From an uncultured Gemmatimonadaceae bacterium (GTDB taxonomy: Bacteria; Gemmatimonadota; Gemmatimonadetes; Gemmatimonadales; Gemmatimonadaceae), in NCBI GenBank assembly GCA_963781585.1, contig CAWAGQ010000013.1, positions 160,001 through 224,000 of the forward strand: a stretch of 64,000 bases of DNA, read 5' to 3'. The notes beneath the pieces were generated by a model. That model had not been told where the DNA came from and did no database searches. It saw only the letters and a program-made list of their open reading frames with translations. This document shows, piece after piece, positions 2,796 to 59,495 of this stretch (position 1 is the stretch's first letter; the number at the start of each line of letters is the position of its first letter). The translations under genes were made by a program, and so were the position numbers.

Positions 2796-3655
2796 GTGAG
2801 GCGTCGGTGGCCGTGGACGCGAGCGTTGTGGCCGGCGCGCTGCGCGAGCGACTCGATGTGCGCGCGCCGGCCATCGCGATCGTCCTCGGCTCGGGGCTGG
2901 GAGGACTGGCGAAGCGGGTGGGTCGCGCCCGCTCGGTGCGGTATGCCGACATCCCGGGCTTCGCGGCGCCGGCCGTGGAGGGTCATGCCGGGCTGCTGAT
3001 GGCCGGGGAGCTCGCGGGGCGCGAGGCGCTGGTGCTGGCCGGCCGCTTTCACTTGTACGAGGGACATCCCCCAGCCGCCGCCGGATTCCCGGTCCGGGTG
3101 GCCTCCGCGTTAGGCGCGCGGGTGCTGCTGCTGTCGAACGCGGCCGGAGGAATCCGGCGCACCTTCCGGACCGGCGACCTGATGGTCATCAACGACCACA
3201 TCAATCTGATGTGGCGGAATCCGCTCACCGGTCCGGTCGTGGCCGGGGATGAGCGGTTCCCGGACATGTCGTGTCCGTACGATCCCGCGCTGCGCGCGCT
3301 GCTCCACGAATCCGCCGCTTTCCTCGGCGAGGCATTGCAGGAGGGCGTCTACGCGGGGCTGCTGGGGCCGTCGTACGAAACGCCGGCCGAAATCCGGATG
3401 CTCGAGCGCCTGGGGGCCGACGCGGTGGGCATGTCCACCGTGCCCGAGGTGCTGGTGGCGCGCGCGCTCGGGCTGCGCGTGGCGGGGGTGAGCTGCATAA
3501 CGAATCCGGCCGCTGGCTTGTCGGCCGGGAAGGTCGATCACGCCGATGTGCTCGAACGCTCGGCCGCGGCGGCCGAGCGCTTCGAGCGCATCGTCATCGA
3601 ATTCGTGCGGCGGGTGGAAGAGGGCGACGGCGACGGCGGTGAGGAGACACCGTGA
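2792..3655 (+). CDS. punA: Purine nucleoside phosphorylase (trimeric type)
   Basis: IVLGSGLG, GRFHLYEG, NAAGG, GPSYETPAE, VGMSTVPE, ITN motifs. Confidence 0.93.
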   Translation: MSEASVAVDASVVAGALRERLDVRAPAIAIVLGSGLGGLAKRVGRARSVRYADIPGFAAPAVEGHAGLLMAGELAGREALVLAGRFHLYEGHPPAAAGFPVRVASALGARVLLLSNAAGGIRRTFRTGDLMVINDHINLMWRNPLTGPVVAGDERFPDMSCPYDPALRALLHESAAFLGEALQEGVYAGLLGPSYETPAEIRMLERLGADAVGMSTVPEVLVARALGLRVAGVSCITNPAAGLSAGKVDHADVLERSAAAAERFERIVIEFVRRVEEGDGDGGEETP

Positions 3656-3697
3656 TTCCGGGGATGATCTCGCGACCGTCGCCGCCGATCAGCGTCA

Positions 3698-4303
3698 CTA
3701 CCAGGACAATCCCACGCTCATCGGGAAGAACTGGAAGTGCGTGTTGCCCACGCTCACCGCGTGATAACGCGACTCGACAAACAGATTCGCTCCGCCCATC
3801 CGGAAACGAAGGCCTCCGCCGGCGTTGAACCCGAGCTTGGTGTCGCTGCTGCTCACGGTGATATCCTGGTCGGTGATGGACGGCTCTACGCGATACACGG
3901 CGGGTCCCGCCAGCAGGTACCAGCCGATACCGCGTCCCTGCGGCGCGACTTCAAGGACGCCGTCCGCGCCAAAGGAGAGCATGCCGTAGTGGCCCGTCGT
4001 GCCAACGGATCCGCCTTCGTCCACCAGGAACCGGTCGGTGAAGTCGTTCCTGTACTGCACTTCACCGCGAAGTCCGAAAACCTGGTCGGGCTGCCGGTAC
4101 TGCACGTACCCGCCGAGGTTCCACCCGGTCTTCGTGACATCGCCGAGGTCACCGCTGGGCACGGTGAGGCCACCCTGGATGCCGACGGAGACCGGCTTGC
4201 CGGCTGGTGGAGCAGCGAATTGGGCCACCGCCACGCGGGGCGCCAGACCAGCCGCGGCCGCGAGGACGACGAGCGAAGCACTGCCAAGAAGAGAACGCTG
4301 CAT
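3698..4303 (-). CDS. Outer-membrane beta-barrel protein (8-stranded, OmpA-like TM domain)
   Basis: Signal peptide, alternating beta-strand pattern, GFNAGGGLRF, C-terminal aromatic (GLSW). Confidence 0.75.
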   Translation of the reverse strand: MQRSLLGSASLVVLAAAAGLAPRVAVAQFAAPPAGKPVSVGIQGGLTVPSGDLGDVTKTGWNLGGYVQYRQPDQVFGLRGEVQYRNDFTDRFLVDEGGSVGTTGHYGMLSFGADGVLEVAPQGRGIGWYLLAGPAVYRVEPSITDQDITVSSSDTKLGFNAGGGLRFRMGGANLFVESRYHAVSVGNTHFQFFPMSVGLSW

Positions 4304-4364
4304 ATTGAACCTCTGGATTCTCCGATGGAGGAAACGGGCGGCGCGCCTGCCGATACCCGGCGAG

Positions 4365-6054: not shown

Positions 6055-6911
6055 TCGACGCCTTCTCGGGCACGTTTTTCTTTCTCATCGGCGCCGCGGT
6101 CGGGTCGTTCCTGAACGTGTGCATCGCGCGGTGGCCCCACGAGCTGTCGGTGGTCAAGCCGCGGTCGCGGTGCCCCACCTGCGGCCAGCCGATTGCCTGG
6201 TACGACAACGTGCCGCTGGTGAGCTGGCTGGTGCTTCGCGGGCGCTGCCGGCACTGCGGCAACCCGATCTCGGTGCTCTACCCGGCGGTGGAGCTATTGG
6301 TGGCGTTAGGCTGGCTGCTGGCGGCGTCGGCGTTCGGCCCGACCTTCACGGCGGTGCGGGTGGCCGTGTTCGGGACGCTGATGCTCGGCATCGCGGTCAC
6401 CGACGCGCGGCATTACCTGATCCCCGACGGCTTCACGGTCTTCGGATTGATCTGGGTCCTCGGGACCGCGCTGGCGGCGGGTGCACGCGGCGACCTATCG
6501 CCGTTCGCGGGGCCGTACGACGCGCTGATCGGCGCCTGTGCGGGCGCCGGTGCCATCGCCATCGTCGGATGGCTGGGCGAAGTGGCGCTCAAGAAGGAAG
6601 CGATGGGCTTCGGCGACGTCACCCTGATGGCGGTGGCGGGCGGGGCACTGGGGCCGGGGCGCGCGCTCCTCGCCATCTTTCTGGGAGCGATGGCCGGTGC
6701 GGTCGGCTTTGCACTGGTGGTGTATCCGATCGTGAGATTCCGCCGTAGGGACGCAGGTGAACAGATGGAACTCGAGATGGACAATTCGCGCCGGCGCGCG
6801 CTTCCGCAGGTCCCGTTCGGCGTTTTCCTTGCGCCTGTCGCGATCATCGCGTTGGTTTGGGGCGAGCACCTCATTTCCTGGTATGTAGGACGGATGCTGG
6901 CGGCATCGTGA
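6051..6911 (+). CDS. pilD: Prepilin peptidase (A24, with N-terminal Cys domain)
   Basis: GSFLNV, CPTC...CRHC, TDARHYLIPD, MGFGD, PFGVFLA. Confidence 0.9.
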   Translation: MIDAFSGTFFFLIGAAVGSFLNVCIARWPHELSVVKPRSRCPTCGQPIAWYDNVPLVSWLVLRGRCRHCGNPISVLYPAVELLVALGWLLAASAFGPTFTAVRVAVFGTLMLGIAVTDARHYLIPDGFTVFGLIWVLGTALAAGARGDLSPFAGPYDALIGACAGAGAIAIVGWLGEVALKKEAMGFGDVTLMAVAGGALGPGRALLAIFLGAMAGAVGFALVVYPIVRFRRRDAGEQMELEMDNSRRRALPQVPFGVFLAPVAIIALVWGEHLISWYVGRMLAAS

Positions 6912-8107
6912 CGGACGAGATTGAGCCCACCTCGCTCCCCCGCAACGGAGCGCTCGCGCGATTCGCGCGCGATCTCACGGCCGAAGCCCGCGAGGGACGG
7001 CTGGAGCCCGTGCGCTGCCGCGCCCCGGAGATCGCCCGACTGATCGACATTCTCCTGCGCCAGGGCAAGAACAATCCGGCGCTGGTAGGACCGGCCGGCG
7101 TCGGCAAGACGGCGATCGCGGAAGGACTGGCGATGCGCCTCGTTGAGGGCGACGTCCCGCTGGCGTTGCGCTCGGCGCGACTGATGGCGGTGGACCACGT
7201 GGCCCTGCTGGCGGGCACGACCTACCGCGGCCAGTACGAGGAACGGATCCGGGTACTGGTCGAGGAGACGCGCTCGCATCCCGACGTCATCCTGTTCATC
7301 GACGAGCTGCACAACCTCATTGGACAGGGAACGGCGTTAGGCGTGGCGATGGACGCGGCCAACATGCTGAAGCCGGCGCTGGTCCGCGGCGACTTCCGGG
7401 TGATCGGCGCCACCACCGACGAGGAATACGACCGCTGGATCCGCACCGATCCGGCGCTGGAACGCCGGTTTCAGCGGCTGCAGGTGACCGAGCTGTCGTC
7501 CGAGGAGACGCTCAAGATCCTGCGCGCCCGCCGCGAACGGCTGGAACGCCACCACAACGTGGTCATCTCCGACGACGCGCTGCGCGCCGCGGTCGCCCTC
7601 ACCGACCAATACCAGACCGATCGCCGCCGCCCCGACCGCGCCATCGACGCCCTGGATGAAGCCTGCGCACACACGCATGCACTGGCGCACTATTCGGATC
7701 GGGCGCAGCAGCTCATCCTGCGGCGGCGCCAGCTCCTGCGCTCGGCGCCGGCGGCGAGGGAGGCCGAACGCGAGTCCGCTCCCGAAGACGATCCCATCGA
7801 TCAGTTCGCGCGCGATGGCATTTCGGCGCTCCAGCGATTCGGCGCCGAGCTCGAGGCCATGTTCGTCGGTCCACCGATCGACGGCAATGGCGACGGGCCC
7901 GAGCGCACCAACGTGCCGCGCGTGGCCGTGCCCGAGGCACCCGCGCCTCAGCCGGAACCGGCGGTGGACCTGCCCACCACTCTCCCGGCCGCGGAGCGCG
8001 CGCTCACCGACCTGCTGCACGCGGAGAGCGTGGTGGTGCGCGGCGTGGACGTGGCACGCGTAGTGGCGGTGTCGACGGGGCGCGAGGTGACATGGGCCGC
8101 CGCGTAG
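6908..8107 (+). CDS. ClpA/ClpB-related AAA+ ATPase containing only NBD1
   Basis: KNNPALVGPAGVGKT, GTTYRGQYEER, ILFIDELH, GATT, ERRF, PDRAIDALDEAC; ends at the VARVVAVSTG helix. GTG start overlaps the pilD stop. Confidence 0.85.
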   Translation: MTDEIEPTSLPRNGALARFARDLTAEAREGRLEPVRCRAPEIARLIDILLRQGKNNPALVGPAGVGKTAIAEGLAMRLVEGDVPLALRSARLMAVDHVALLAGTTYRGQYEERIRVLVEETRSHPDVILFIDELHNLIGQGTALGVAMDAANMLKPALVRGDFRVIGATTDEEYDRWIRTDPALERRFQRLQVTELSSEETLKILRARRERLERHHNVVISDDALRAAVALTDQYQTDRRRPDRAIDALDEACAHTHALAHYSDRAQQLILRRRQLLRSAPAAREAERESAPEDDPIDQFARDGISALQRFGAELEAMFVGPPIDGNGDGPERTNVPRVAVPEAPAPQPEPAVDLPTTLPAAERALTDLLHAESVVVRGVDVARVVAVSTGREVTWAAA

Positions 8108-9354: not shown

Positions 9355-9355
9355 C

Positions 9356-10765
9356 GTGTCGCGCCAGGGCGCGGACCCGGCGACGCCCGGGCTTCCGACC
9401 ACGACGCCGCCGCGGGCGGGCGAGCCGGTTGCGGCGGCGGCCGGGGCCAGCATTCCGGCGACGCGGCCCCTCGCGAAAACGGACGTCGCCGGCCGCGATC
9501 CCCTGTCGCAACCCGTGTCGTTGCGGCCCGGAGAGGATGAGGTCCGGCAGCGGGCGCTGGACCGGATGAAGCGATGGGCGACCGGGCTCCTGCTGCTGGC
9601 GACGGTGATCTTTCTTGTTGCCCGATGGCTCGAGCCGGCCCATCCCTGGTTAGGCATCATCCGGGCGACCGCCGAGGCGTCGATGGTGGGGGCACTCGCC
9701 GACTGGTTCGCGGTGACCGCGCTGTTCAAGCACCCGCTGGGGATCCGCATTCCGCACACCGCCATCATTCCGGCGCGGAAGGACCGGGTGGGGCAAACGT
9801 TAGGCGCGTTCGTGCAGCGCAATTTCCTCAATCGCGACGTGATCGCGGCCAAGGTGCGGTCCATTCACGCCGCCGAGCGGCTGGCGCGGTGGATGCTGGA
9901 GCCGGAGAACGGGCGGCGGATCGCCCGCCAGCTGGCGCGCGGGCTGGCGACCGGCGCCGAGGTCGTGCGTGACGAGGACGTGCAGCAGCTGTTGCACCGC
10001 ACCGTCACCGACCGCGTGCGCGCGGTGAAAGTCGCGCCGCTCCTTGGGAAGCTGCTGGGCGTGCTGACCGAGGGGAACCGGCACCAGGCGCTGCTGGACG
10101 AAGGGATCCGGATCGCGGCGCGGGCGGTGTCGGGGAATCGCGATCTCATCCGGGAGAGGGTGGAGAGCGAGAGCCCGTGGTGGATCCCCGGTGTGGTGGA
10201 CGAGAAAATAGCCGAGAAGATCTCCGGTGGTCTGGAGCGGACGCTGGCCGATATTCATGCCGATCCCGCGCATCCGCTGCGGCTGCGGTTCGACCACGCG
10301 CTGGAGGAGTTCGTCCAGCGGTTGCAGACGTCTCCCGAGGTGATCGCGCGCGCGGAGGCGATCAAGGAGGAAGTGCTGAGCGCCGAGGTCGTGCGGGCGT
10401 TCACCGGGTCGCTGTGGGGCGATGCGAAGCGCGCGGTGGCGAGGTACGCGGACACCGAGGAAGGTTTCAATCCGGCCGCCGTGCAGCGGGCGCTGAGCGG
10501 ATTCGGCGAGGCGATTCTGTCCGATCCGGCACTGATGGAGAAGATCGACGGATGGCTGACGGAGGCGGCGGTGGCGCTGGTGGACCGGTATCAGGACGAG
10601 GTGGGGGAGCTGATCGCGGGCACGGTGCGGCGCTGGGACCCGGTGGCGACGTCGCGTCGCATCGAACTGGCGATCGGGCGCGATCTGCAGTTCATCCGGA
10701 TCAACGGGACGCTGGTAGGCGGGCTGGCGGGGATGATGCTGTACCTGCTGCAGCGGATGATGTAG
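9356..10765 (+). CDS. DUF445-family membrane protein
   Basis: AEASMVGALADWFAVTALFKHP, HTAIIP, GRDLQFIRINGTLVGG. Start codon uncertain. Confidence 0.88.
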   Translation: MSRQGADPATPGLPTTTPPRAGEPVAAAAGASIPATRPLAKTDVAGRDPLSQPVSLRPGEDEVRQRALDRMKRWATGLLLLATVIFLVARWLEPAHPWLGIIRATAEASMVGALADWFAVTALFKHPLGIRIPHTAIIPARKDRVGQTLGAFVQRNFLNRDVIAAKVRSIHAAERLARWMLEPENGRRIARQLARGLATGAEVVRDEDVQQLLHRTVTDRVRAVKVAPLLGKLLGVLTEGNRHQALLDEGIRIAARAVSGNRDLIRERVESESPWWIPGVVDEKIAEKISGGLERTLADIHADPAHPLRLRFDHALEEFVQRLQTSPEVIARAEAIKEEVLSAEVVRAFTGSLWGDAKRAVARYADTEEGFNPAAVQRALSGFGEAILSDPALMEKIDGWLTEAAVALVDRYQDEVGELIAGTVRRWDPVATSRRIELAIGRDLQFIRINGTLVGGLAGMMLYLLQRMM

Positions 10766-10800
10766 GTGACCATCCTGAGCGATTGCTGATCATTGTTTGA

Positions 10801-10842
10801 TAGGCCCCGCGCCCGGGTGCCGGGCAGCAGGTGCGGGGCCTA
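10801..10842. terminator. Inverted repeat, probable terminator of the trmH-DUF445 operon
   Basis: TAGGCCCCGC...GCGGGGCCTA, a 10-bp perfect stem about 35 nt after the stop. No clear U-tract. Confidence 0.5.
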
Positions 10843-13391: not shown

Positions 13392-14223
13392 AAGCCGCCA
13401 CCCTCTCCCTGCGGGATCGGATCCGCACGCAGCTCGCCGATCTCCGCATGCCGGGCGCGCTTGAAGCCCTCGATGACGTCCTGCAGGAGGTCGACGGCGG
13501 CAAGCTCCCCGGCCCGGTCGCCATCGAGCGGCTGTTAGGCGCACAAATCACGCTCCGCAACAATCGCCGCCTGACCGCGGCGATGCGGTCCTCGCGCCTC
13601 CCGGCGGTGAAGCTGCTCGCCGACTTCGATTTCAGCTTCCAGCCGTCGCTCAAGCGCGAGCAGATCGACAGCCTGCACACGTTAGGCTTCGTCGAGCGGC
13701 GAGAAAACGTGATCCTGCTCGGGCCGCCCGGCGTCGGCAAGAGTCACCTGGCGATCAGCCTCGCGATCGCGGCGGCGCAGAGCGGGCGCCGGGTCTACTA
13801 CGGCACCTTGGCCGATCTCATCACCTCGCTCGAGGAGGCCCAGGCCGCCGGCCGGCTCTCGCAGCGGCTCAAGACGCTCATCTTCCGAGTGTGCTGGTGG
13901 TCGACGAGATCGGCTACCTCCCGATCAGTCGGACCGGGGCGATGCTCTTCTTCCAGCTCATGTCCCGCCGCTACGAACGCGGCAGCAGTGTGCTCACGTC
14001 GAACAAGAGCTTCGAGGAGTGGGGCGAGATCTTCGGCGACGAGGTGATGGCGACCGCGCTCATCGACCGGCTCGTGCACCACTGTCACATCGTCAACATC
14101 CGCGGCAACAGCTACCGGATGAAGAACCACGCCGACCTCTACGCCGCGCTCCGGGCCACGACCCGCGGCGACGCCTCACCCACCCTCAAACGGCCCAGCC
14201 GGCGGGAGGTGGTGGCGCGCTGA
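13388..14223 (+). CDS. istB: IS21 helper ATPase IstB, with a frameshift near 13885
   Basis: GPPGVGKSHLA in one frame; LVVDEIGYLP...TSNK...DRLVHH...GNSYR in the next. Adding one C at TTCCGA restores IFPSVLVVDE. Confidence 0.9.
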
Positions 14224-18931: not shown

Positions 18932-20263
18932 ATGTTCGACGAACTTTCCGAGAAGCTGTCCGCCACGTTCTCGCGCCTTCGCGGGCGAGGCATACTCACG
19001 GATTCCGACATCAAGGACGGACTCCGCGAGATCCGGCGCGTGCTCCTCGAGGCCGACGTGAATTTCCAGCTCACGCGGGAGTTCCTCGAACGGGTGGAGT
19101 CGAAGGCCGCTGGTGTGACGTCGATCAGGACGGTCCAGCCGGCGCAGCAACTGGTCAAGATCGTCTACGACGAGCTGACCGCCATGCTGGGCGAGCAGCG
19201 GCAGCAGCTCAAGTTCAGCAGTGTGCCGCCGACGGTCGTGATGCTGGTGGGGCTCCAGGGTTCCGGGAAGACGACCACGGCGGCGAAGCTCGCGCGAAGG
19301 CTCAAGGGCGAAGGACGGCCGACGCGAATGGTTGCGGCCGACGTGTATCGTCCGGCCGCCATCGACCAGCTGGAGACGCTCGGCGCGCAGCTCGAGGTGC
19401 CGGTGTACGCGGACCGCTCGACGCAAGACGTGGTGCGGATCGCGCGGACGGGCATCGAGGAGGCGCGCCGGGCGCGCGACCGGATCGTGGTGCTCGATAC
19501 CGCCGGCCGGCTGCAGATCGACGAGGAGATGATGAAGGAGCTGGTGCGGGTGAAGGAGGCGGTGCACCCCGACGAGATCCTGCTGGTGGCCGACGGCATG
19601 ACGGGGCAGGACGCGGTGCGCATCGCCCAGGGCTTCAACGACGCGTTAGGCATCACCGGGGTCATTCTCACCAAGATGGACGGCGATGCCCGCGGCGGGG
19701 CGGCGCTGTCGATCTACGGCGTGATCAAGAAGCCGATCAAGTTCGTGGGCGTCGGCGAGAAGGTGGATGCGCTCGAGGACTTCCATCCCGAGCGCATGGC
19801 CGGCCGTATCCTTCAGATGGGCGACATCGTGTCGCTGGTCGAGAAGGCGCAGGAGGCGTTCGACACGGCCGAGGCGAAGAAGCTCGAGAAGAAGGTCCGG
19901 AAGGAAGGGGTCGATCTGGAGGACTTCCTGACGGCGATGAAGCAGATGCAGAAGCTCGGACCGCTCGAGGGAATCCTGAAGATGCTGCCCGGCGTGAACG
20001 CCAAGATGCTGCGGCAGGCGAATCTCGATCCGAAGCGGATGAAGCACGTGGAGGCGATCGTGCTGTCGATGACGCGCCAGGAGCGGAAGACACCTGGCGT
20101 GATCAACGGCTCGCGGCGGGCGCGCATCGCGCGGGGCAGCGGCCGTCCCATCAGCGAGGTGAACAGGCTGCTGGAGCAGTTCCGCGACATGCAGAAGATG
20201 ATGAAGAAGGCGGCCGGGGGCGGGCGGATGGGGTTGCCGCCTGGGCTGATGGGGATGCGGTGA
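18932..20263 (+). CDS. ffh: Signal recognition particle protein
   Basis: LLEADVN, GLQGSGKTT, DTAGR, TKMDGDARGG, Met-rich M domain with SRRARIARGSG. Confidence 0.97.
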   Translation: MFDELSEKLSATFSRLRGRGILTDSDIKDGLREIRRVLLEADVNFQLTREFLERVESKAAGVTSIRTVQPAQQLVKIVYDELTAMLGEQRQQLKFSSVPPTVVMLVGLQGSGKTTTAAKLARRLKGEGRPTRMVAADVYRPAAIDQLETLGAQLEVPVYADRSTQDVVRIARTGIEEARRARDRIVVLDTAGRLQIDEEMMKELVRVKEAVHPDEILLVADGMTGQDAVRIAQGFNDALGITGVILTKMDGDARGGAALSIYGVIKKPIKFVGVGEKVDALEDFHPERMAGRILQMGDIVSLVEKAQEAFDTAEAKKLEKKVRKEGVDLEDFLTAMKQMQKLGPLEGILKMLPGVNAKMLRQANLDPKRMKHVEAIVLSMTRQERKTPGVINGSRRARIARGSGRPISEVNRLLEQFRDMQKMMKKAAGGGRMGLPPGLMGMR

Positions 20264-41735: not shown

Positions 41736-41746
41736 CCGGCGGGTGC

Positions 41747-46497: not shown

Positions 46498-46518
46498 GAG
46501 CGCGGATGGCGCGAATCG

Positions 46519-47652
46519 TTAGGCAAGCGTGGCCGCCAGATGGCGCAGGAGGTCGGCGGTGATCAGTTGCGGACTCACGTTTCCGTCGGCCAGCAGTTTG
46601 GCATCCTCCACCAGGTCGATCGCCTGGCTGGCAGCGAGCGCCTGGCGCGCATTCCCGTGCTCGGCCCCCCCGCGCATCCGCTCCCGGAGGGCCAGGGTGA
46701 GGGCGTCGAGGAGATCGGAGAAGGCGCCGCGAGCGCCCCGGTGTCCCTGCAGGAACGCCAGGCGCCACAGTTCGGAGCGACGGCCCGCCACGGCGGCGTC
46801 GAGCAGGCGCTTTGCTTCGTCCACCGCGGGCTGGCGCACGCCGGATGACAGCAGCACTCCGGGGGCCCCTTCGGCGAGGTCGAGCCGGACCCTCTCCGGC
46901 TTCGGCACGCCGAGTTTGTCGAGTGCGGCGGATACGGCGGGATTGCGCAGAAACGCGCGCATCGCGGCTTCGGGAAGCCGTGGCACCCGCACGGTCACCA
47001 CGCGCGAGCGGATCGTGGGGAGCAGCGCGCCCACGGCGCTGCTGGTGGCGATGATCCAGGTGTCCGCCAGCGGTTCCTCGAGAAGCTTGAGCAGCGCGTT
47101 GGCGGCGAACTCCTGTCCCTCCACCGGCACCATCCGGTCCGCATCGCCGATGACGAACACCTTGCGCGCGGCCAGCGCCGGGGTGAGCGCGGCGCGCCGG
47201 AGAACGTGGCGCACGGTCGCCACGTAGATCCCCTCGGAGCCCGGGGGCGCCGCGTAGAGGCCATGCGCCTCGGCGCGCTCGAGCGCGGCGGTGGCGAGAT
47301 CGCTCTTGACGTCGTCGATGGCGAGGTCCGAGTCCTTCGGCCGCGGTCGCGGGAAGATCCACGTGAGATCGGGATGGACCAGCCCGATCACGTAGCGGCA
47401 GTGCTTGCAGGCTCCGCACGGCGGCTCCGGCTCGCGGCAGAGCAGGGCCTGCGCGACAAGCAGGGCCAGTCGCTGCTTTCCCACACCCTGCGGTCCGTGG
47501 AGGAGGAGACTCTGCGGCAACGAACCCGCGCGGACGGCGCGCAGCAGGCGTTCGCGCAGTTCCTCGTGCCCGAAGAGCGGAATGATGGTCCTGGCGGGCG
47601 GTGTCGCGTCAGGCAAGGGAGCGGGACTCCAGTCGGTGCAGGGCTCTGCCAT
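46519..47652 (-). CDS. holB: DNA polymerase III delta' subunit
   Basis: GPQGVGK, CGACKHC..HPDL, AANALLKLLEEP, LLPTIRSR. Confidence 0.88.
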   Translation of the reverse strand: MAEPCTDWSPAPLPDATPPARTIIPLFGHEELRERLLRAVRAGSLPQSLLLHGPQGVGKQRLALLVAQALLCREPEPPCGACKHCRYVIGLVHPDLTWIFPRPRPKDSDLAIDDVKSDLATAALERAEAHGLYAAPPGSEGIYVATVRHVLRRAALTPALAARKVFVIGDADRMVPVEGQEFAANALLKLLEEPLADTWIIATSSAVGALLPTIRSRVVTVRVPRLPEAAMRAFLRNPAVSAALDKLGVPKPERVRLDLAEGAPGVLLSSGVRQPAVDEAKRLLDAAVAGRRSELWRLAFLQGHRGARGAFSDLLDALTLALRERMRGGAEHGNARQALAASQAIDLVEDAKLLADGNVSPQLITADLLRHLAATLA

Positions 47653-47664: not shown

Positions 47665-49251
47665 CTAGCGCGGGCGCGCCGCTCTCGTGAGCCGGGGGGT
47701 GCTGGCGGGTGTGCGCCGGTGATGGGTGGCCTGCTCGTACGCGTACGCCAGTCGGATGAGCGTCGCTTCGCTCCAGGGGCGGCCGAAGAACGTCAGGCCG
47801 GCGGGGAGCACGCCGCGCGAGTATCCCATGGGTACGGACATCGCGGGGAACCCGGTGGTGGGTGAGAAGAAGGGCGAGTTGTTGCCGTCGGGCGTGTTGA
47901 GATCGCCGATCAGGCGCGGCGGGTTGCTCCAGGTGGGATAGACGAACGCGTCGAGGTGCTGGTCGTCCATTGTCCGCACGACGGCGTCGGCGAGGGCGCC
48001 GCGGAACGTCTCGCGCGCGCGACAGCCGGGAAGGGTCTCGGGAGCCGAGTCGGCGCGCGCCTCCTGCTCCAGCCGGCGCTGGATGGTGGGATGGAATCGT
48101 CCCGACCGGAGGATCTCGTCGAGCGACTTGAGGGGCGGGCCATCAGCGCCTAACGCGGAGAGATACCGGTTCAGGTCGTACTTGAACTGCGGGCAGCCGC
48201 CGCGCCCGGTGCGCCGCAACGAGTCGAGCGACGGGATCAGTGCGGTGTCGACCACGGTGGCGCCGGCCCGCCGCAGGTCGGCCAGCGCCCGGTCGAAGAT
48301 GGCCATGACCTCGCTGTCGGCGGTGACGGGATTCCACGCCTGCCGCAGCACCCCGATGCGGGCGCCGGCGAGGCCGTGCCGGTCCAGCGATTTCGCGTAA
48401 TCGGGGATCGGGTGGTCGCGGCTCGCGGCCGTGACCGGGTCGTTCGGGTCTTCGCCGGCGACGACCTGGAATACGGCCACCGCATCGGCGACGGTGCGCG
48501 CGATCGGCCCGGCGATGTCCTGCGAGAGGAAGAGCGGCACCACACCGGCGCGGCTGGTGAGGCCCATGGTGGACCGGATGCCGAACAGCGCGTTGTGCGA
48601 CGACGGCCCGCGGATGGAATTCCCGGTGTCGGTGCCCAGGCCCACGGTCCCGAAGCTCGCGGCCACGGCGGCGGCGGTCCCGCCGCTGGAGCCGGCGGTG
48701 ACGCGGTCCAGCGCGTAGGGGTTCTTCGTGTATCCGGGGAGGATGGAGCTCACCGTCTCGTACGGCGAGAACGCGAATTCCGCCATGTTCGATTTGGCGA
48801 GGACGATCGCGCCTGCCTCGCGGATACGGCGGACCTCGAAGGCATCTTCCTTCGGCTGCCACCCCTGGAAGGCCAGCGAGCCTGCGGTGGTCGGCAGGTC
48901 AACCGTCTGGAAGTTGTCCTTGACGATCATGGGGATGCAGTGCAGGGGACCGACGAATCCGCCGGTGCGGAATCGACCGTCGAGCGAGTCGGCGACGTCG
49001 AGCGCGTGGGGATTCACCACGATGAGGGCGTTTATGGCCGGTCCCTTCTTGTCGAAGGCGTCGATGCGCGCGAGGTAGGCGCTCACCAGCTGGCGGCAGG
49101 TGAGGTGGCGCGCCTGCATCGCGGCGTGGATGTCAGCGATCGTGGCTTCGACGACGTTGAACGGAGTCGTCTGGGCCGACGCCGAACGCGCGACGAGCGC
49201 GAGGCATCCGGCCAGTGCCGTGCCGGCGATCAGGAATGGGTGGCGAGGCAT
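47665..49251 (-). CDS. Exported amidase-signature enzyme
   Basis: Signal peptide, VKDN, GSSGG, GTDTGNSIRGP. Confidence 0.9.
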   Translation of the reverse strand: MPRHPFLIAGTALAGCLALVARSASAQTTPFNVVEATIADIHAAMQARHLTCRQLVSAYLARIDAFDKKGPAINALIVVNPHALDVADSLDGRFRTGGFVGPLHCIPMIVKDNFQTVDLPTTAGSLAFQGWQPKEDAFEVRRIREAGAIVLAKSNMAEFAFSPYETVSSILPGYTKNPYALDRVTAGSSGGTAAAVAASFGTVGLGTDTGNSIRGPSSHNALFGIRSTMGLTSRAGVVPLFLSQDIAGPIARTVADAVAVFQVVAGEDPNDPVTAASRDHPIPDYAKSLDRHGLAGARIGVLRQAWNPVTADSEVMAIFDRALADLRRAGATVVDTALIPSLDSLRRTGRGGCPQFKYDLNRYLSALGADGPPLKSLDEILRSGRFHPTIQRRLEQEARADSAPETLPGCRARETFRGALADAVVRTMDDQHLDAFVYPTWSNPPRLIGDLNTPDGNNSPFFSPTTGFPAMSVPMGYSRGVLPAGLTFFGRPWSEATLIRLAYAYEQATHHRRTPASTPRLTRAARPR

Positions 49252-49351
49252 GGCAGGGGAGCGGAGGGATGGTCTACCGTGGCGCGTGCACCCAAGGAGA
49301 GGGGCACCCGGAGGCACGTTGCATTCGGCGACGCCACAATGGAAGGGCGAT

Positions 49352-50307: not shown

Positions 50308-51255
50308 TCACTCCAGCCGAATGCGCGGATCGATCCAGAGATACGTGAGATCCACGAGGAGGTTGACTGCTACCACCGCAATCGAGACGAACAGGGTGAT
50401 GGCCATCACGAGCGGGTAATCGCGTCCGAGCGCTGCCTGGACGCCCAGGCGCCCCAGCCCCGGCCAGGCAAAGACGGTTTCGGTAATCGCGGCGCCGCCG
50501 ATCAGGCGGGGGAGCTGAATGCCGAGCACGGTGACGACCGGGACGAGGGAGGCGCGCAGCACGTGCCGCCAGCGCACCGCGCTCTCGCTCGCGCCCTTGG
50601 CGCGGGCCACGCGCACGAAGGGCTGACCAGACACCGTGCGCGCCGACGAGCGCGTGTACCGGAGCAGTTCGGCGGTGGTCACCGCCGCCAGCACCAGCGC
50701 CGGCAGGATCAGATGGCGCAGCCGGTCGGCGAGATTCGCCGCGGCCCCCACCGTCGATGCCCCGCCGGCCGGCAGGACGTGCAGGACGACCGCGAACAGA
50801 AAGATGCAGCCGATGGCCAGCCAGAAGGTGGGTACCGCCATCGCCACGAAAGCGACCCCGCTCACCGCGCGATCGATCCAGCTGCGCGGCCGCGTCGCGC
50901 ACCAGACGCCGAGCGGGAGCGCCAGCACCACGCTCAACGCCAGCGCCGCCCCGGCGAGGAGGGCGGTATTGGGCAGCCGGGCCGTGATCGCCTCCACGTT
51001 AGGCGACTGGTAGAGAAAGCTCTCGCCCAGGTCGCCGCGCGCCAGACGCCCGATCCATCGCGCGTACTGCGTCGGGAGGGGCCGGTCCAGGCCCAGCTGG
51101 CGCTCGATGGCAGCGCGCTCCACGGCCGTGAGCTTGGGGTCGGCGAGCACCGCGGGGCCGCCGGGCGCGAGGTGCACGATGCCGAAGGTGACCGTGCACA
51201 CGACCAGGATCACTGTGAGCGCGTGCAACACGCGCCGGAGCAGAAAGGCAGCCAT
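50308..51255 (-). CDS. Peptide/nickel ABC transporter permease (DppB-like)
   Basis: LGLDRPL..QY, GDLGES, ARAKG, ETVFAWPGLG, DPRIR. Confidence 0.9.
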   Translation of the reverse strand: MAAFLLRRVLHALTVILVVCTVTFGIVHLAPGGPAVLADPKLTAVERAAIERQLGLDRPLPTQYARWIGRLARGDLGESFLYQSPNVEAITARLPNTALLAGAALALSVVLALPLGVWCATRPRSWIDRAVSGVAFVAMAVPTFWLAIGCIFLFAVVLHVLPAGGASTVGAAANLADRLRHLILPALVLAAVTTAELLRYTRSSARTVSGQPFVRVARAKGASESAVRWRHVLRASLVPVVTVLGIQLPRLIGGAAITETVFAWPGLGRLGVQAALGRDYPLVMAITLFVSIAVVAVNLLVDLTYLWIDPRIRLE

Positions 51256-54738: not shown

Positions 54739-57003
54739 TCACTTCAGCCGTGCTGACCGGTCGTCCAGTGCGGCGGCCTCGCGGGCTCGCCCCACGCGGC
54801 GGAGAAGATCGGCGTAATCGTGGAGGGTCTCGCGAAGGTCGTCGTTGTTTGGCCCCGGGAACCGGTCGCGGATCGTGAGGGCGCGGTGGTACAGGGCCTC
54901 CGATTCACCGGAGTGGCCCGTGTCGCGCAGGACGCCGGCCAGGGCGTTGAGCGTGATGGCCACGCTTGGATTCCCGCTGGTGAGCACCTGTTCCTTGATC
55001 GCGAGCGCGTGGCGCAGGAGGGGCTCGGCCTCGTTGTAGCGCTTCAGCCTCCAGTAGGTCTCACCGAGGTTGTTGAGGATCTCGGCGAAGCGGGAGTGCG
55101 TCGGCCCCAGCGTCTTCTCGACGATCGGGCGGGCGCGTTCGTAGAGCCGCAGGGCCTCATCGTAGTGCCCGAGTTGCCAGGCCACCGCGCCGAGATTCTG
55201 CAACGTGCCGGCGACGTCGTAGTGATCCGGGCCCAACACGCGCTCCTGAATCTCCAGCGTGCGCTGAAACAGGGGTTGCGCCTGGTCGTAGCGCTGCGTG
55301 GCGTAGAAGACTGCTGCCAGGCCGCGCAGGTCGCGGGCGAAGCGCTGGTCATCGGGGCTGCGCAGCCGCTCGTCGAGGCCGACCACGCGCTGATAGAGCG
55401 ACTCGGCCTCGGCAATCCTCCCCTGTTTGTAGCGCAGCGCCGCCAGTCCGCCGAGAGTCGTGGCGAGGTCAACAGTCTCGGTGCCGCGCGGCGTTTCGCG
55501 AATGGCCAGCGCGCGCTGGTAGAACCCGTCCGCGTCGTCGTAGTTGCCCTTCCCGCGGGCGACGTCGCCTAACGCGGTGAGCGCTTCCGCGACCGCGGGA
55601 TCATTCGGTCCGAGGGCCTGCTCGCGGATGCTGCGGGCCTTCTCGAGCATCTCCCGCGCCGGGTCGAGGAGGCCGAGGGCTTCCTGCACGGTGCCGAGGG
55701 TGTACATGATGCGCGCCTGGAGCACCGGCTGCTGGGCAAGCTCGGTGGTGACGCGGCTGGCGCCCCAGTCGAGGATTTCGCGGGCCGTGAGCGTGTCGCC
55801 ACGCGACTGGCCGGGATCGGCGGTGCGAAACAGGTCGACCAGGAAGTTCGTGACCTGCCTGGCGGCTGCCGCCTCCTGAGCGGCGAGGCGTTCGGCGCGG
55901 GTGGCGCGGACAAAGCCGACCGTGGCCAGGATGGCGCTGGCAATCACGGCCACGCTGACCGCACCGGCGGTGATCACCGCCGCGCGGTGCCGTCGCACGA
56001 ACTTGACGAAGCGATACCGGGCGCTCCTCGGGCGGGCCACCACCGGTTCGTTGGCCAGGTGCCGCCTGAGATCATTGGCCAGCCCGTTGGCGGTCTCGTA
56101 GCGCCGGGTCCGCTCCGGCTCCATCGCCTTCATCACGATCCAATCGAGATCACCCTTGAGCTCGCGCCGCAGTCCGGCGGGCTCGGTTCGTCGCGAGGCC
56201 GCGACGTGGGTCTGCTCATTTCCCAGCGTCTGCAGCATCGCACTGGGCGTAGGCGGCGAGGTGTCACCGGCGGCCAGGCGGGCGAGGAAGGCGTGTACGC
56301 CCAGTTTCGCCGGATCGGTTGGGAGACGGCCCACCAGCAACTCGAAGAGCATCACGCCTAACGAGTAGATGTCGGCGCGGGTGTCGACGTCGACCGCCGC
56401 CGAATCGGCCTGCTCGGGACTCATGTAGGCGGCGGTCCCGATCATCTGGCCGAACTGGGTCACCAGCGTCCGGTCGGTCAGGGGACTGCCGAGCGCCTTG
56501 GCGATGCCGAAATCGATGATCTTGGGCTGCGGCGCGCCGTCCTGTTCGGCGATCAGGACGTTCGACGGCTTCAGGTCGCGATGGATGACGCCCTTCTGAT
56601 GGGCGTGCTGCACCGCCTGACAGACCGCGATGAACAGCTCCACCCGCTGCCGGACGGGAAGCCGGTGTGCGTCGCAGTACTCGGTGATCGGGAGCCCCTT
56701 CACCAGCTCCATGGCGAAGTACGGCTGCCCCGACTCGGTGGAGCCGGCGTGAAGCACCTTGGCGATGGCGGGGTGATTCATGACGGCGAGCGCCTGACGC
56801 TCCGTCTCGAACCGGGCGATCACGTCGCGCTGGTCGCGTCCGGCCCGCACCACCTTGAGCGCCACACGCCGCCGCACGGCCCCGGTCTCCTCGGCCTCGT
56901 ACACAACGCCCATCCCCCCCTCACCCAGCACCTGCAGGATGCGGTACGGGCCGATGCGTTCCGGAAGCGGGTGCAGGCCGCGGGAGACGGTGGTGTCGTT
57001 CAC
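54739..57003 (-). CDS. Hanks-type Ser/Thr kinase with one TM segment and C-terminal TPRs
   Basis: GEGGMG, VALK, HRDLKPSN, DFG, GTAAYMSPEQ, TM, repeated AESLYQRAL/LGPDH units. Confidence 0.92.
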   Translation of the reverse strand: MNDTTVSRGLHPLPERIGPYRILQVLGEGGMGVVYEAEETGAVRRRVALKVVRAGRDQRDVIARFETERQALAVMNHPAIAKVLHAGSTESGQPYFAMELVKGLPITEYCDAHRLPVRQRVELFIAVCQAVQHAHQKGVIHRDLKPSNVLIAEQDGAPQPKIIDFGIAKALGSPLTDRTLVTQFGQMIGTAAYMSPEQADSAAVDVDTRADIYSLGVMLFELLVGRLPTDPAKLGVHAFLARLAAGDTSPPTPSAMLQTLGNEQTHVAASRRTEPAGLRRELKGDLDWIVMKAMEPERTRRYETANGLANDLRRHLANEPVVARPRSARYRFVKFVRRHRAAVITAGAVSVAVIASAILATVGFVRATRAERLAAQEAAAARQVTNFLVDLFRTADPGQSRGDTLTAREILDWGASRVTTELAQQPVLQARIMYTLGTVQEALGLLDPAREMLEKARSIREQALGPNDPAVAEALTALGDVARGKGNYDDADGFYQRALAIRETPRGTETVDLATTLGGLAALRYKQGRIAEAESLYQRVVGLDERLRSPDDQRFARDLRGLAAVFYATQRYDQAQPLFQRTLEIQERVLGPDHYDVAGTLQNLGAVAWQLGHYDEALRLYERARPIVEKTLGPTHSRFAEILNNLGETYWRLKRYNEAEPLLRHALAIKEQVLTSGNPSVAITLNALAGVLRDTGHSGESEALYHRALTIRDRFPGPNNDDLRETLHDYADLLRRVGRAREAAALDDRSARLK

Positions 57004-57068
57004 GTCCCGGCCATCCTGGACTTACGGCGATACGCGCGGACCGCGCGTGTGCGGCTACTCTGTCACCG

Positions 57069-57497
57069 CTAGTCTACCACGATGTCGGGGTCGATGGTAA
57101 CCGTATCCGGAGTGTCACTTCCATTGGGCGCGCAGATTCCCGTGATGGTGTACTTGTGCGGTCCGGCGTCGGCCCCGTCCAGCACAGTGGCCGAGGCCGA
57201 CTGGCCTTTCACCGCCGTATAGGGACCGGCAGGATCGAACTTCCAGGTGATCGGGTCCTTTGCCGCAATGACGATTTGCGCAACGCTGTGCGCATCACTC
57301 TTGAAATTCCACTGCACCGTCTCCGCCTTCTTCCGATGCAACTTCCAGCGGTCGATCTTGAAGTCGACGTTGCCGCTGGAGCACGTGAGATGCACGTTGA
57401 CGTCTCCTCGCGCGAGGGCGGCTGGCCCGCCGGCGCATGAGACGACAACGACCACCACAAAGGCGACACCAGCGACTCGCACACCCACGCCGCGCAT
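57069..57497 (-). CDS. Small beta-rich lipoprotein with C-terminal DP motif
   Basis: Hydrophobic stretch plus VSC lipobox, ETVQW, KYTI, IDPDIVVD. Confidence 0.6.
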   Translation of the reverse strand: MRGVGVRVAGVAFVVVVVVSCAGGPAALARGDVNVHLTCSSGNVDFKIDRWKLHRKKAETVQWNFKSDAHSVAQIVIAAKDPITWKFDPAGPYTAVKGQSASATVLDGADAGPHKYTITGICAPNGSDTPDTVTIDPDIVVD

Positions 57498-57680
57498 AGG
57501 CCACTCCAGGAGGGCTGAAGTCCCTAGATTGGCCCGGCCTGCTGCGACCCGCAAGGTGGCGCACGCTGAATCCCGCGCCGGTGCCCGTCGCGTAGGGAAC
57601 CAGCAGCAACGGATCGGCCACTCCCCGGCTCCAACAGGGCGACCAGTCCGCGTTGCCCGTCGTGCTCACCCTCCGAGTAC

Positions 57681-59495
57681 ATGACCAACCCGCCACTCTC
57701 TCCGGAATTCCTCGCCCTCCAGCGCGCCGTCGCCGGGCGGTTCTCGCTGGTGCGCGAGCTCGGGCGGGGTGGCATGGGAATCGTCTACCTCGCGCGCGAC
57801 GTCGCCCTGGACCGGTTGGTCGCCATCAAACTGCTGCCGCCGGCCCTGGCCGGGCAGTCCGCGTTCCGCGACCGGTTTCTCCGCGAGGCGCGGATGGCCG
57901 CGTCGCTGGCGCATCCGCACATCGTGCCGATTCATCTCGTCGAATCGACCGGCGACATCGTGTACTTCGTGATGTCGTTCGTGGACGGGGAAACGCTGGG
58001 AGAGCGGGTCCGGCGCCGGGGACCGATGGCCTCGTCCGACGTGATGCGGATCGTCCAGGAAGTGGCCTGGGCGCTGGGGCACGCGCACGCGCGCGGGATC
58101 GTGCATCGGGACATCAAGCCTGACAACATCCTGCTCGACCGGGAGTCGGGGCGCGCGCTGGTGACCGACTTTGGCATCGCCGGCGCGGCGGCCGGCACCA
58201 CCCCGGCCGATGGCCTGCCGGCGGGCACGCCGCACTACCTCAGCCCCGAAGTGGCGCGCGGGGAGCATGGCGACGCCCGCGCCGACCTCTACGCGTTAGG
58301 CGTGACCGCCTGGTACGCGCTCACCGGCAGCCACCCGTTCGAGGCCCCCACGCTTCCGGCGCTGCTGGTGAAGCAGGCCTCGGAGCCGCCGCCGGGGCTG
58401 GGCCGGATCGCACCGCATGCGTCCCCGCGGTTCGCGCGCGCGATCGACCGCTGCCTGGCCACGATGCCCGAGCAGCGCTGGCCCGACGCCGAAGCGCTGG
58501 CCGGCGAGGTCGACGTGGTGCGCGCACGCGTGATGCGGTTGCCGGCGCCGGTTCGCGCGTTTGCGTCGGAGGCGATATCGGCAGGCGACCTGATAGCGAC
58601 CGGCATAGCCGGCGCTGCGACGGCATTGACGGTGCTGGCTGTTCTCCATCGCGGAGGGCCGTTCGACGACATGGTGGCGACCGCCACGCTGGTGCCGGTG
58701 GCCTCCGCTTTTCTCGGCGTTGCGCTTCTGCGAGTCGGAGGTGTGGGCATCGCTGCTCGAGACCTGATCGAGGCAGGGTACGACTTCGAAGCCGCGCGTG
58801 CCGGCCTGGTCCACACCTACGCCGAGCGAGGCGGTGAGGAGGCGGAGAAGCTTTCCACGTCACACAGACGTCGAGCGCTGGTCTACGGGGCCACCGCCCT
58901 CATCAAGGAAGCGATCGCAATCTCGTTGGCTCTGTGGGCAAGGTCGACCTGGATCTATCTCCCGGCCGAGGTGTTCGCGGTGCTCATTCCGCCCTTCGCC
59001 GCGCGAACCATCTGGCGCACCCTCGGGCTCGGGCCGGGGCTGTGGCTGCGCCTGCTCGGAGGCCGACTGGGCCGGTTCATGTTCTCGGTTGCGCGCCGGC
59101 TCGCGCGCCGCAGCACTGCGCCCGCGGCCGACGCCCAATCGACGATCGCGGCGCTCGGCAGCGACGCCGAGGGGACATTCCTTCGCCTGCCGCTCGGCGT
59201 GCGCGATGACCTGCGCAACGTCCCGCGTCTGCTGAGTGCGCTGGGACGTAAGGCCGAGGTGCTGAGAACGAAGGCCGACGACCCCGTGGCGGCGGAACGG
59301 CTGGCCACCGTGGTCGCGGCCATCGAGGCCATGCGGCTGGACCTGCTGAGCCTCGAGGCAGGGCTTGTCACCATCCCGGATGTGACACGCCATCTCCAGG
59401 ATGCCGAACGCATCGCGCGGGCCGTCGACAATCTGCTGGAAACGCCCCCGCATGTCGCGACGGAGAAACTGGTCGGAGATCCAACCCCCACCTGA
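57681..59495 (+). CDS. Hanks-type Ser/Thr kinase with multi-TM C-terminal region
   Basis: GRGGMG, VAIK, HRDIKPDN, DFG, GTPHYLSPE, about 4 hydrophobic helices. Confidence 0.9.
   Translation: MTNPPLSPEFLALQRAVAGRFSLVRELGRGGMGIVYLARDVALDRLVAIKLLPPALAGQSAFRDRFLREARMAASLAHPHIVPIHLVESTGDIVYFVMSFVDGETLGERVRRRGPMASSDVMRIVQEVAWALGHAHARGIVHRDIKPDNILLDRESGRALVTDFGIAGAAAGTTPADGLPAGTPHYLSPEVARGEHGDARADLYALGVTAWYALTGSHPFEAPTLPALLVKQASEPPPGLGRIAPHASPRFARAIDRCLATMPEQRWPDAEALAGEVDVVRARVMRLPAPVRAFASEAISAGDLIATGIAGAATALTVLAVLHRGGPFDDMVATATLVPVASAFLGVALLRVGGVGIAARDLIEAGYDFEAARAGLVHTYAERGGEEAEKLSTSHRRRALVYGATALIKEAIAISLALWARSTWIYLPAEVFAVLIPPFAARTIWRTLGLGPGLWLRLLGGRLGRFMFSVARRLARRSTAPAADAQSTIAALGSDAEGTFLRLPLGVRDDLRNVPRLLSALGRKAEVLRTKADDPVAAERLATVVAAIEAMRLDLLSLEAGLVTIPDVTRHLQDAERIARAVDNLLETPPHVATEKLVGDPTPT

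Follow-up and report, generated by a model that had tools for sequence, protein, structure and literature searches.

A 64-kb stretch of DNA from an uncultured Gemmatimonadaceae bacterium (assembly GCA_963781585.1, contig CAWAGQ010000013.1, positions 160,001 to 224,000; the whole stretch is called the window here) raises a simple question: why is one octamer, CGTTAGGC, written into it 20 times? The octamer is not palindromic, its reverse complement being the different word GCCTAACG, and its exact copies are split between the plus strand (14) and the minus strand (6). A first-pass annotation of the window had drawn attention to these copies, and all of its coordinates and strands were exact; the GC content that it had put at about 69% was measured as 67.6%. 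In 100 dinucleotide-preserving shuffles of the window the octamer appeared 1.18 times on average and six times at most, and none of the 100 reached 20. The annotation had also proposed k-mer z-scores under Markov models, and CGTTAGGC was the top-scoring 8-mer of the window under both that were used, with 1.0 copies expected at order 1 (z 18.8) and 0.7 at order 3 (z 23.0). A stricter null keeps both the proteins and the codon usage, a setting in which, by the annotation's own account, a mere by-product of coding would lose its enrichment. The enrichment survives: 16 genic copies were observed against a mean of 0.56 (maximum 4) when codons were shuffled within genes and of 0.40 (maximum 3) when they were pooled across genes, with 1000 shuffles each. 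This null is conservative because the TTA codons contributed by CGTTAGGC itself stay in it. The excess in the window is about twentyfold over chance. Sites with one mismatch number 55 against roughly 43 expected, which makes CGTTAGGC a sharp word with hardly any halo; the six one-mismatch variants listed previously are all present, but they are those that keep GTTAGG, and the list was incomplete.

Is the word a peculiarity of this one contig? The Ffh protein of the window is matched best by metagenome-assembled genomes of Gemmatimonadaceae, with identities that reach 88% and no identical protein among them. Relatives were sampled as 80 loci around ffh, 1.22 Mb in all, and 20 of these carry CGTTAGGC at 0.2-1.23 copies per kb. 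In 18 of the 20 dense loci Ffh is at least about 80% identical to that of the window, the exceptions being the short loci L060 and L065. The octamer is absent or at chance level in Longimicrobiaceae, in other orders and in the Gemmatimonadaceae lineages represented by loci L006, L010, L011, L013 and L076-L080. In an Ffh tree of the 75 rows, out of 81, whose match spans 380 residues or more, CGTTAGGC, or the T-form after the base at its position 4, is concentrated in a 25-row subclade that includes the window (Shimodaira-Hasegawa-like approximate likelihood ratio test, SH-aLRT, 94). The annotation had called the word lineage-specific, and this is borne out: one Gemmatimonadaceae clade carries it densely, and the sister clades lack it. 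Many assemblies made independently in different studies have the word, as does one finished isolate genome, that of the cultured Gemmatirosa kalamazoonensis KBS708. Two 50-kb samples of the megaplasmids of this isolate hold 31 and 35 copies, and the whole of its plasmid 2 (NZ_CP007130.1; 1,040,503 bp, 72.8% GC) holds 701, with 335 on the plus strand and 366 on the minus strand, and the suggestion of a genome-wide motif is thus borne out over an entire 1.04-Mb replicon. Copies per genome are expected to run to thousands. Motif density in 10-kb bins of the plasmid correlates weakly with GC content (Spearman 0.22, p = 0.024), and no clear foreign-island signal was found there. Four loci of a distant Gemmatimonadota clade (L057, L059, L060 and L065; Ffh 63-66% identical) together contain CGTTAGGC six times over about 40 kb, several times what a rough estimate from composition predicts by chance (about 0.03 per kb). 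The word or its underlying system may extend sparsely beyond the main clade.

How the word sits in genes can be followed copy by copy in the window, with a gene map made from Pfam matches to 67 open reading frames (ORFs) and our own crude codon-likelihood gene finder. Gene calls confirm the frames that had been read by eye: 15 copies as sense xCG-TTA-GGC, three as antisense CCT-AAC and two as stop codons (the TAG of doxX and the TAA of holB). The 20 copies are as follows, with the strand of the octamer and then the gene and its strand.
3108..3115, plus strand: sense GCG-TTA-GGC (A-L-G) in a PNP_UDP-family phosphorylase gene, 2792-3655 (+)
6304..6311, plus strand: sense GCG-TTA-GGC (A-L-G) in a prepilin peptidase (A24) gene, 6051-6911 (+)
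7335..7342, plus strand: sense GCG-TTA-GGC (A-L-G) in an AAA ATPase gene, 6857-8107 (+)
9798..9805, plus strand: sense ACG-TTA-GGC (T-L-G) in a DUF445 gene, ORF 9050-10765 with predicted start 9356 (+)
13680..13687, plus strand: sense ACG-TTA-GGC (T-L-G) in the N-terminal piece of an IS21 istB, 13298-14047 (+), an ORF outside the predicted gene set
17387..17394, minus strand: sense TCG-TTA-GGC (S-L-G) in the lon C-terminal ORF, 16064-17542 (-)
19644..19651, plus strand: sense GCG-TTA-GGC (A-L-G) in ffh, 18932-20263 (+)
21941..21948, plus strand: sense TCG-TTA-GGC (S-L-G) in trmD, 21532-22302 (+)
27391..27398, plus strand: antisense, GCG-CCT-AAC-GAA (A-P-N-E), in a response-regulator gene, 27350-28081 (-)
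29564..29571, plus strand: sense CCG-TTA-GGC (P-L-G) in mprF, 28594-31248 (+)
30773..30780, plus strand: sense TCG-TTA-GGC (S-L-G) in the same mprF, 28594-31248 (+)
36445..36452, plus strand: antisense, ATG-CCT-AAC-GTG (M-P-N-V), at the 5' end of a cNMP-binding / pyridine nucleotide-disulphide oxidoreductase gene, 34760-36469 (-)
41745..41752, minus strand: TAG stop of doxX, CGT-TAG, 41747-42259 (-)
42508..42515, minus strand: sense GCG-TTA-GGC (A-L-G) in a Beta-lactamase2-family gene, 42256-43629 (-)
46517..46524, plus strand: its complement gives the TAA stop of holB, GCC-TAA, 46519-47652 (-)
48148..48155, minus strand: sense GCG-TTA-GGC (A-L-G) in an amidase gene, 47665-49317 (-)
50997..51004, plus strand: antisense, TCG-CCT-AAC-GTG (S-P-N-V), in an oligopeptide permease (oppB-like) gene, 50308-51255 (-)
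55567..55574, minus strand: sense GCG-TTA-GGC (A-L-G) in a Ser/Thr kinase-TPR gene, 54739-57003 (-)
56356..56363, minus strand: sense TCG-TTA-GGC (S-L-G) in the kinase domain of the same Ser/Thr kinase-TPR gene, 54739-57003 (-)
58294..58301, plus strand: sense GCG-TTA-GGC (A-L-G) in the kinase domain of a Ser/Thr kinase gene, 57681-59495 (+)

Whether a codon or a stretch of DNA is being kept becomes apparent once the copies are set against the sites that could hold them. Capacity, counted for the four stop-free frames, is the number of sites that could spell CGTTAGGC by a change of synonymous codons and nothing else. Relatives were grouped by motif density into 20 dense loci (at least 0.2 per kb) and 38 GC-rich loci with less than 0.06 per kb, and therefore only the comparison between frames inside a group is free of that choice. 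Filled sites over capacity are given for each sample in turn.
Window: NCG-TTA-GGC sense 14/57; CCT-AAC antisense 2/10; GTT-AGG sense 0/41; CTA-ACG antisense 0/30
20 dense relatives: NCG-TTA-GGC 86/283; CCT-AAC 14/45; GTT-AGG 15/209; CTA-ACG 6/118
38 GC-rich relatives below 0.06 per kb: NCG-TTA-GGC 0/510; CCT-AAC 1/47; GTT-AGG 0/343; CTA-ACG 0/217
Gemmatirosa plasmid 2 (776 predicted genes): NCG-TTA-GGC 296/1242; CCT-AAC 164/319; GTT-AGG 20/754; CTA-ACG 34/471

In the dense relatives and on plasmid 2, synonymous choice thus fills 24-31% of the [S/T/P/A]-Leu-Gly sites and 31-51% of the antisense Pro-Asn sites. The sense-strand excess of the window copies arises because x-Leu-Gly is common and does not reflect a preference for the coding strand. 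The fraction of TTA codons in a fixed 8-base context, another check that the annotation had proposed, is high: 14 of the 18 TTA codons in predicted genes of the window lie inside the exact octamer, three of the other four lie inside one-mismatch variants, and on plasmid 2 the fraction is 296/378. Stop codons are also drawn in, with 65 of the 776 predicted plasmid genes having theirs within CGTTAGGC. As had been argued from the mixed frames and strands, CGTTAGGC is a signal at the level of DNA and not a codon choice, since filling per usable site is similar in sense and antisense and spacers are denser than genes. Motif-bearing Leu-Gly sites are also Leu-Gly in motif-free genomes in 541/932 cases, slightly less often than other sites (925/1446), and the Pro-Asn sites conserved there (2/21 vs 17/246) are too few to judge. 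By our own estimate, the x-Pro-Asn-[VADEG] sites that can accommodate an antisense copy number roughly 0.25-0.4 per 1000 codons in motif-free relatives, compared with 0.6 for the window and T-rich loci and 1.0 for Gemmatirosa, and their greater frequency in motif-bearing genomes hints that the word also drove amino-acid change.

Between genes the word is denser still. On plasmid 2 the predicted genes hold 0.56 copies per kb and the DNA outside them 1.18. Among the spacers, those between convergent genes are richest, at 2.15 copies per kb, followed by tandem spacers at 1.28, where the copies are clustered directly past the upstream stop codon, and by divergent spacers at 0.67. Of the 157 copies in the window and the 20 dense loci, 138 are wholly genic by the gene predictions, about ten overlap a stop codon and five or six belong to true intergenic DNA. 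Flanking bases are uninformative at 190 sites and at 115 intergenic sites except for a purine at base 9, which is present in 588 of the 701 plasmid copies and makes the fuller word CGTTAGGCR. With flanks unconserved, the word is not the core of a longer repeat, and repetitive extragenic palindromic elements, miniature inverted-repeat transposable elements and other dispersed repeats were rejected because nothing beyond the core is conserved except that purine. Short tandem arrays around 108118-108173 and 697547-697600 of NZ_CP007130.1 repeat an octamer-containing unit of 12 or 15 bp, for example as four successive copies, and the word has therefore sometimes been amplified locally besides arising by substitution. 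Spacing along the DNA is somewhat more even than random. In the window the coefficient of variation (CV) of the gaps is 0.54 (p = 0.003) and the smallest gap is 763 bp (p = 0.007); on the plasmid the CV is 0.909 against 1.000 +/- 0.038 and counts per 10 kb have a mean of 6.74 and a variance of 4.89. A CV below 0.9 was found in 11 of the 13 genomes tested, which share orthologous sites and are not independent.

Is the word kept, or merely made often? Persistence was assessed at [STPA]-L-G sites in 17 motif-bearing genomes by means of 1162 reciprocal-best-hit gene pairs. If the first genome of a pair carries CGTTAGGC at a site, the second does so with probability 0.61, and if the first does not, with probability 0.28. 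Four-fold-degenerate sites in the same gene pairs are only 45% identical, and in the 69 genome pairs in which this identity is below 0.45, which is saturation, the two probabilities are 0.60 and 0.29. CGTTAGGC is maintained over time despite saturated synonymous divergence. The distribution of mismatches to the word at these Leu-Gly sites is bimodal, and CTG is depleted more than CTC at the Leu-Gly sites of motif-bearing genomes.
0 mismatches: motif-bearing genomes 31%, motif-free genomes 0%
1 mismatch: motif-bearing genomes 5%, motif-free genomes 2%
2 mismatches: motif-bearing genomes 18%, motif-free genomes 45%

The word also has dialects. Position 4 of the octamer varies by lineage between T, C and G, and in part of the Ffh tree the T-form is replaced by CGTCAGGC (the C-form) and in one lineage also by CGTGAGGC (the G-form), as counts in five loci illustrate.
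L015: T-form 3, C-form 13, G-form 2
L036: T-form 2, C-form 13, G-form 0
L005: T-form 4, C-form 11, G-form 5
L001: T-form 3, C-form 7, G-form 3
L004: T-form 1, C-form 11, G-form 12, with C and G about equal
The C-form is written into usable frames in its turn, as the filled sites over capacity in eight C-rich loci and in motif-free relatives indicate.
CGT-CAG-GCN: C-rich loci 7/11, motif-free relatives 0/19
CCT-GAC: C-rich loci 20/66, motif-free relatives 4/36
NCG-TCA-GGC: C-rich loci 7/54, motif-free relatives 0/76
Most motif-bearing genomes hold T- and C-forms together. Of the 12 C-form copies in the window, seven are in the xGC-CTG-ACG frame, where they fill 7/30 usable sites against 1/66 and 6/48 in two motif-free groups. 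Plasmid 2 is essentially T-only, with 701 T, 157 C, 113 G and 1 A at position 4. An origin of the T-form by deamination of the C-form was considered and rejected. The T-form sits on Leu-Gly that is conserved as Leu-Gly in motif-free genomes (541/932), and the frame in which the change from CTG-ACG to CTA-ACG would be silent is among the least filled (34/471).

What, then, reads the word? CGTTAGGCR is a lineage-specific word recognised as DNA, and it is not a codon, peptide or RNA signal because antisense, intergenic and stop-codon copies exist. Our best reading, to which we give a probability of roughly 40%, is that it is an uptake or self-recognition tag of the kind represented by the DNA uptake sequences (DUS) of Neisseriaceae and the uptake signal sequences (USS) of Pasteurellaceae. 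A Gemmatimonadaceae clade has gained the word by point substitution wherever the sequence tolerates it, and under such a mechanism the transformation machinery would have a DNA receptor, at the surface or in the periplasm, that prefers fragments with the word. Alleles bearing the word would then be taken up and recombined more often, and the resulting bias would act as a molecular drive, possibly aided by selection, that spreads the word and keeps it genome-wide. The process of uptake is suggested here by analogy only. We tentatively propose that Gemmatimonadaceae hold a so far unknown system of own-DNA recognition whose tag is CGTTAGGCR with T, C and G dialects at position 4. A bolder form of the proposal, which is pure speculation, is that T at position 4 mimics 5-methylcytosine (m5C), as both present the same methyl group in the major groove, so that C-dialect lineages would need a methyltransferase and T-dialect lineages would not.

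Uptake is put first because the features of the word match those described for DNA uptake sequences. Like DUS and USS, it is short and asymmetric, here at about 0.3-1.2 copies per kb, is nearly equal in its two orientations over the plasmid as a whole (335 vs 366, with intergenic copies leaning to the G-rich strand), is denser between genes and especially at their 3' ends, and in its genic copies uses the frames that need the least amino-acid change. It differs from them in its sequence, its phylum and its length (8-9 bp vs 9-12 bp), as well as in having no AT-rich flanks and few inverted pairs. The uptake receptor of Neisseria is a ComP-type minor pilin. Passages in PMC2817400, PMC3630211 and PMC1939737 describe uptake-sequence features that this word matches; what PMC2817400 says there of DUS and USS in coding regions is the same as was found here, and, in parts of PMC2817400 and PMC3630211, these words are likewise lineage-restricted, come in single-base dialects and spread by substitution. 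A soil population study that includes Gemmatimonadetes describes widespread homologous recombination with ComEC loci linked to it (PMC7305173). Among the 67 ORFs of the window compared with Pfam, the prepilin peptidase is the only receptor-relevant gene.

Several observations weigh against a tag for uptake. The groups of relatives were selected by motif density, and the gene calls are our own crude codon-likelihood predictions. Frames that each cost one rare codon fill very unequally on the plasmid, at 51% for CCT-AAC, 24% for TTA and 7% for CTA-ACG. AT-rich flanking segments, which USS have, are missing. Of plasmid neighbours less than 100 bp apart, 14 of 42 pairs are inverted and several direct pairs belong to short tandem arrays, unlike DUS, which often occur in inverted pairs serving as terminators. 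The evenness of the window copies becomes modest under a null of usable sites (p = 0.076 for the CV and p = 0.012 for the smallest gap). Intergenic plasmid copies lean toward the G-rich strand, 80 vs 51 (62%; counted per spacer 70 vs 43, p = 0.014), and those in convergent spacers do so 19 vs 6, a lean that an uptake sequence does not predict. To our knowledge, no naturally transformable member of the phylum Gemmatimonadota has been described. No report of competence in Gemmatimonadota was found in the open-access literature and bioRxiv, to which all literature searches here refer, and two comparative-genomics papers on the phylum, searched by term, contain no mention of competence.

That intergenic lean leads to the best surviving alternative, a signal resembling Chi. 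The word would be read as single-stranded DNA by a helicase-nuclease of the AddAB or RecBCD type, which it would switch from degradation to recombination, so that it marks self DNA and its density is maintained to keep every few kilobases protected. Chi, GCTGGTGG in E. coli and 5-7-mers in Firmicutes, is similarly a short, asymmetric and lineage-variable word found once per few kilobases with a raw excess on the G-rich strand. Here the word differs between lineages, occurs once per 1.5-3.2 kb, which is within the range for Chi, is somewhat evenly spaced, and runs counter to base composition as do the GC-rich Chi sites of AT-rich Firmicutes. Its raw counts lean to the G-rich strand in the window (14 vs 6) and on the plasmid (384 vs 317), as do 62% of the intergenic copies and those of the convergent spacers. 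In genes, however, the polarity goes once usable sites are considered. Filling of sites co-oriented and anti-oriented to the G-rich strand is 0.241 vs 0.234 in sense (p = 0.79) and 0.48 vs 0.573 in antisense (p = 0.13) on plasmid 2, and 0.306 vs 0.271 in sense and 0.30 vs 0.28 in antisense in the window and the 20 dense loci. The 53% of genic plasmid copies on the G-rich strand follows from gene orientation (58% of genes co-oriented) and the sense-to-antisense ratio of 319:199, which predict it. In addition, 24-57% of usable sites are filled and spacers show a two-fold excess, a saturation much stronger than that of E. coli Chi, and the replication arms of the plasmid are defined from a very weak GC skew. 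We regard a Chi-like role as unlikely.

The same strand counts bear on the KOPS (FtsK-orienting polar sequences) and architecture-imparting octamers, which the word resembles as an over-represented asymmetric octamer. KOPS have a strong leading-strand skew that switches at dif; CGTTAGGC is found 335 vs 366 times over the replicon with no clear orientation switch in 50-kb bins and a genic co-oriented fraction of 0.53, and polarity of the KOPS type was excluded. The list of candidate systems in the first-pass annotation is narrowed in part: KOPS polarity is out and modification as N6-methyladenine (m6A) or N4-methylcytosine (m4C) is unsupported, and uptake, a Chi-like signal, a binding array and m5C with repair remain.

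An array of binding sites for an abundant protein that organises or segregates the nucleoid, with selection keeping a roughly regular density on the chromosome and megaplasmids, would suit sites that are neutral in orientation, somewhat evenly spaced with under-dispersed counts per 10 kb, conserved at orthologous positions and present on both Gemmatirosa megaplasmids. It would also suit the avoidance of promoter-side spacers (0.67 per kb in divergent ones). The parS, matS, Noc and SlmA sites, however, are palindromic and number tens per genome, compared with one per 1.5-3 kb here, proteins of this sort would not usually read an asymmetric site of 8-9 bp as monomers, and no gene in the window points to one by Pfam. 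These differences make a binding array rather improbable.

A ratchet of methylation and repair, as Elhai proposed for the cyanobacterial octamer HIP1 (highly iterated palindrome 1, GCGATCGC), is quite improbable on the present evidence; it would need no function for the word at all. A modifying enzyme would read the word, and strand-directed or very-short-patch-like repair would make or protect sites faster than they decay. HIP1 is a close parallel in other ways: it too is an extremely abundant octamer that substitutions have written into genes, it is retained at orthologous sites, and its spacing is quasi-regular; its function was long unknown, and it is now proposed in passages of PMC13756078 to be a methylation-dependent uptake tag. 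Spread by substitution without insertions or deletions, together with conservation, is reported for HIP1 in the same passages (PMC13756078) and fits a ratchet. So do the patchy distribution on the tree, a change of specificity at a single position such as is common for methyltransferases, and the predominance of perfect sites (31%) over one-off sites (5%). The G/C-to-A/T variant most enriched in spacers is TGTTAGGC, a C-to-T change at the CpG of the word, at 11 vs about 1.7 by our own composition estimate. In contrast to CGTTAGGC, which is asymmetric and matches no methylation motif reported for Gemmatirosa, HIP1 is palindromic and has known methyltransferase sites. The single-molecule real-time (SMRT) methylome of Gemmatirosa contains only RGATCY, ATGCAC and CCAGN7TCA, all m6A, and none of these motifs overlaps the word (PMC3974934); SMRT data of this kind do not settle m5C, so that only m5C or a modification that escaped detection would fit. 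The ratchet also does not predict even spacing, and T-type sites are not deaminated C-type sites, given the conserved Leu-Gly (541/932) and the sparsely filled CTA-ACG frame. Methyltransferases, moreover, seldom read a continuous asymmetric site of 8-9 bp.

A signal in translation or RNA, with TTA as regulated slow codons in the manner of bldA, an mRNA motif or a selected x-Leu-Gly peptide, is very improbable and already contradicted. It draws on the 15 of 20 window copies in sense xCG-TTA-GGC and the 14 of 18 window TTA codons inside the word, but the antisense Pro-Asn frame is filled as much or more (14/45; 164/319), the sense excess is gone per usable site, spacers have twice the genic density, some copies act as stop codons and codon-preserving shuffles give 0.4-0.56 copies vs the 16 observed. 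Regulation by TTA codons of the bldA type in particular was rejected because TTA is tied to one 8-base context and antisense, intergenic and stop copies exist. Chance, a compositional or assembly artefact or the remnant of a dispersed mobile repeat has nothing in its favour beyond the small size of a single window and is negligible, being contradicted by the nulls, all of which are exceeded, by the many independent assemblies and the finished isolate genome, and by the unconserved flanks.

Other features of the window and its relatives deserve brief mention. In the window lon falls into two overlapping ORFs on the minus strand, 17506-18519 (N-terminal domain) and 16064-17542 (AAA and protease domains), and the IS21 istB into two pieces on the plus strand, 13298-14047 and 13891-14223; these splits are either frameshifts or assembly errors. 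Positions 10800-16000 have a lower GC content (0.63-0.655 in 4-kb bins) and hold IS21-type istA/istB and several ORFs without a Pfam match; their single octamer copy is the one within istB. After a tRNA-Lys(TTT) gene at 36764-36836 come a Uma2-family gene, unknown ORFs and a glycosyltransferase. Here the octamer is missing for 5.3 kb, and the region, 36764-41745, may be an integrated island. Intergenic 7-bp tandem arrays lie at 1015-1149, 18559-18644, 21491-21538 and 60946-61048, with units AGGCCAA/AGGTCAA, GGCCATA/GGTCAA and TGCTGAA, and there is also a 41-bp repeat. Similar heptamer arrays with other units, often as two inverted blocks, were seen in the relatives' loci L035, L037, L025, L015, L020 and L073, and they seem to be a recurrent spacer feature of Gemmatimonadota. 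The top 8-mers of these six loci were considered as further lineage-specific dispersed words and rejected, as they derive from local 7-9-bp tandem arrays.

CGTTAGGC thus belongs to a known kind, the lineage-specific hyper-iterated genomic word, and is itself new as far as searched. No description of it was found in the open-access literature and bioRxiv, a scope that leaves out subscription journals; searches by sequence returned only primers and unrelated sites, and degenerate forms (CGTYAGG and the like) gave no matches. The paper on the Gemmatirosa genome does not mention it (PMC3974934). The question is directly testable since Gemmatirosa kalamazoonensis KBS708 is cultured and has a finished genome, deposited SMRT data (GEO GSE55390) and a dense supply of the word. 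Regardless of function, the word and its dialects make a sharp lineage marker for binning contigs, flagging recent acquisitions and tracking transfer between replicons, and the word accounts for nearly every TTA codon of these genomes, codons that would otherwise appear as an anomaly of codon usage. Gemmatimonadaceae are a major and hardly cultivated soil group. If the word is indeed a tag for uptake or self-recognition, adding it to donor DNA would be a simple option for organisms that lack genetic tools. It would then provide the first evidence that Gemmatimonadota, which are among the most abundant soil phyla, exchange DNA in a sequence-specific way, and would bear on the recombination that holds soil bacterial populations together. 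After Neisseriaceae, Pasteurellaceae and perhaps cyanobacteria, these bacteria would be a further lineage that watermarks its genome for exchange among kin.

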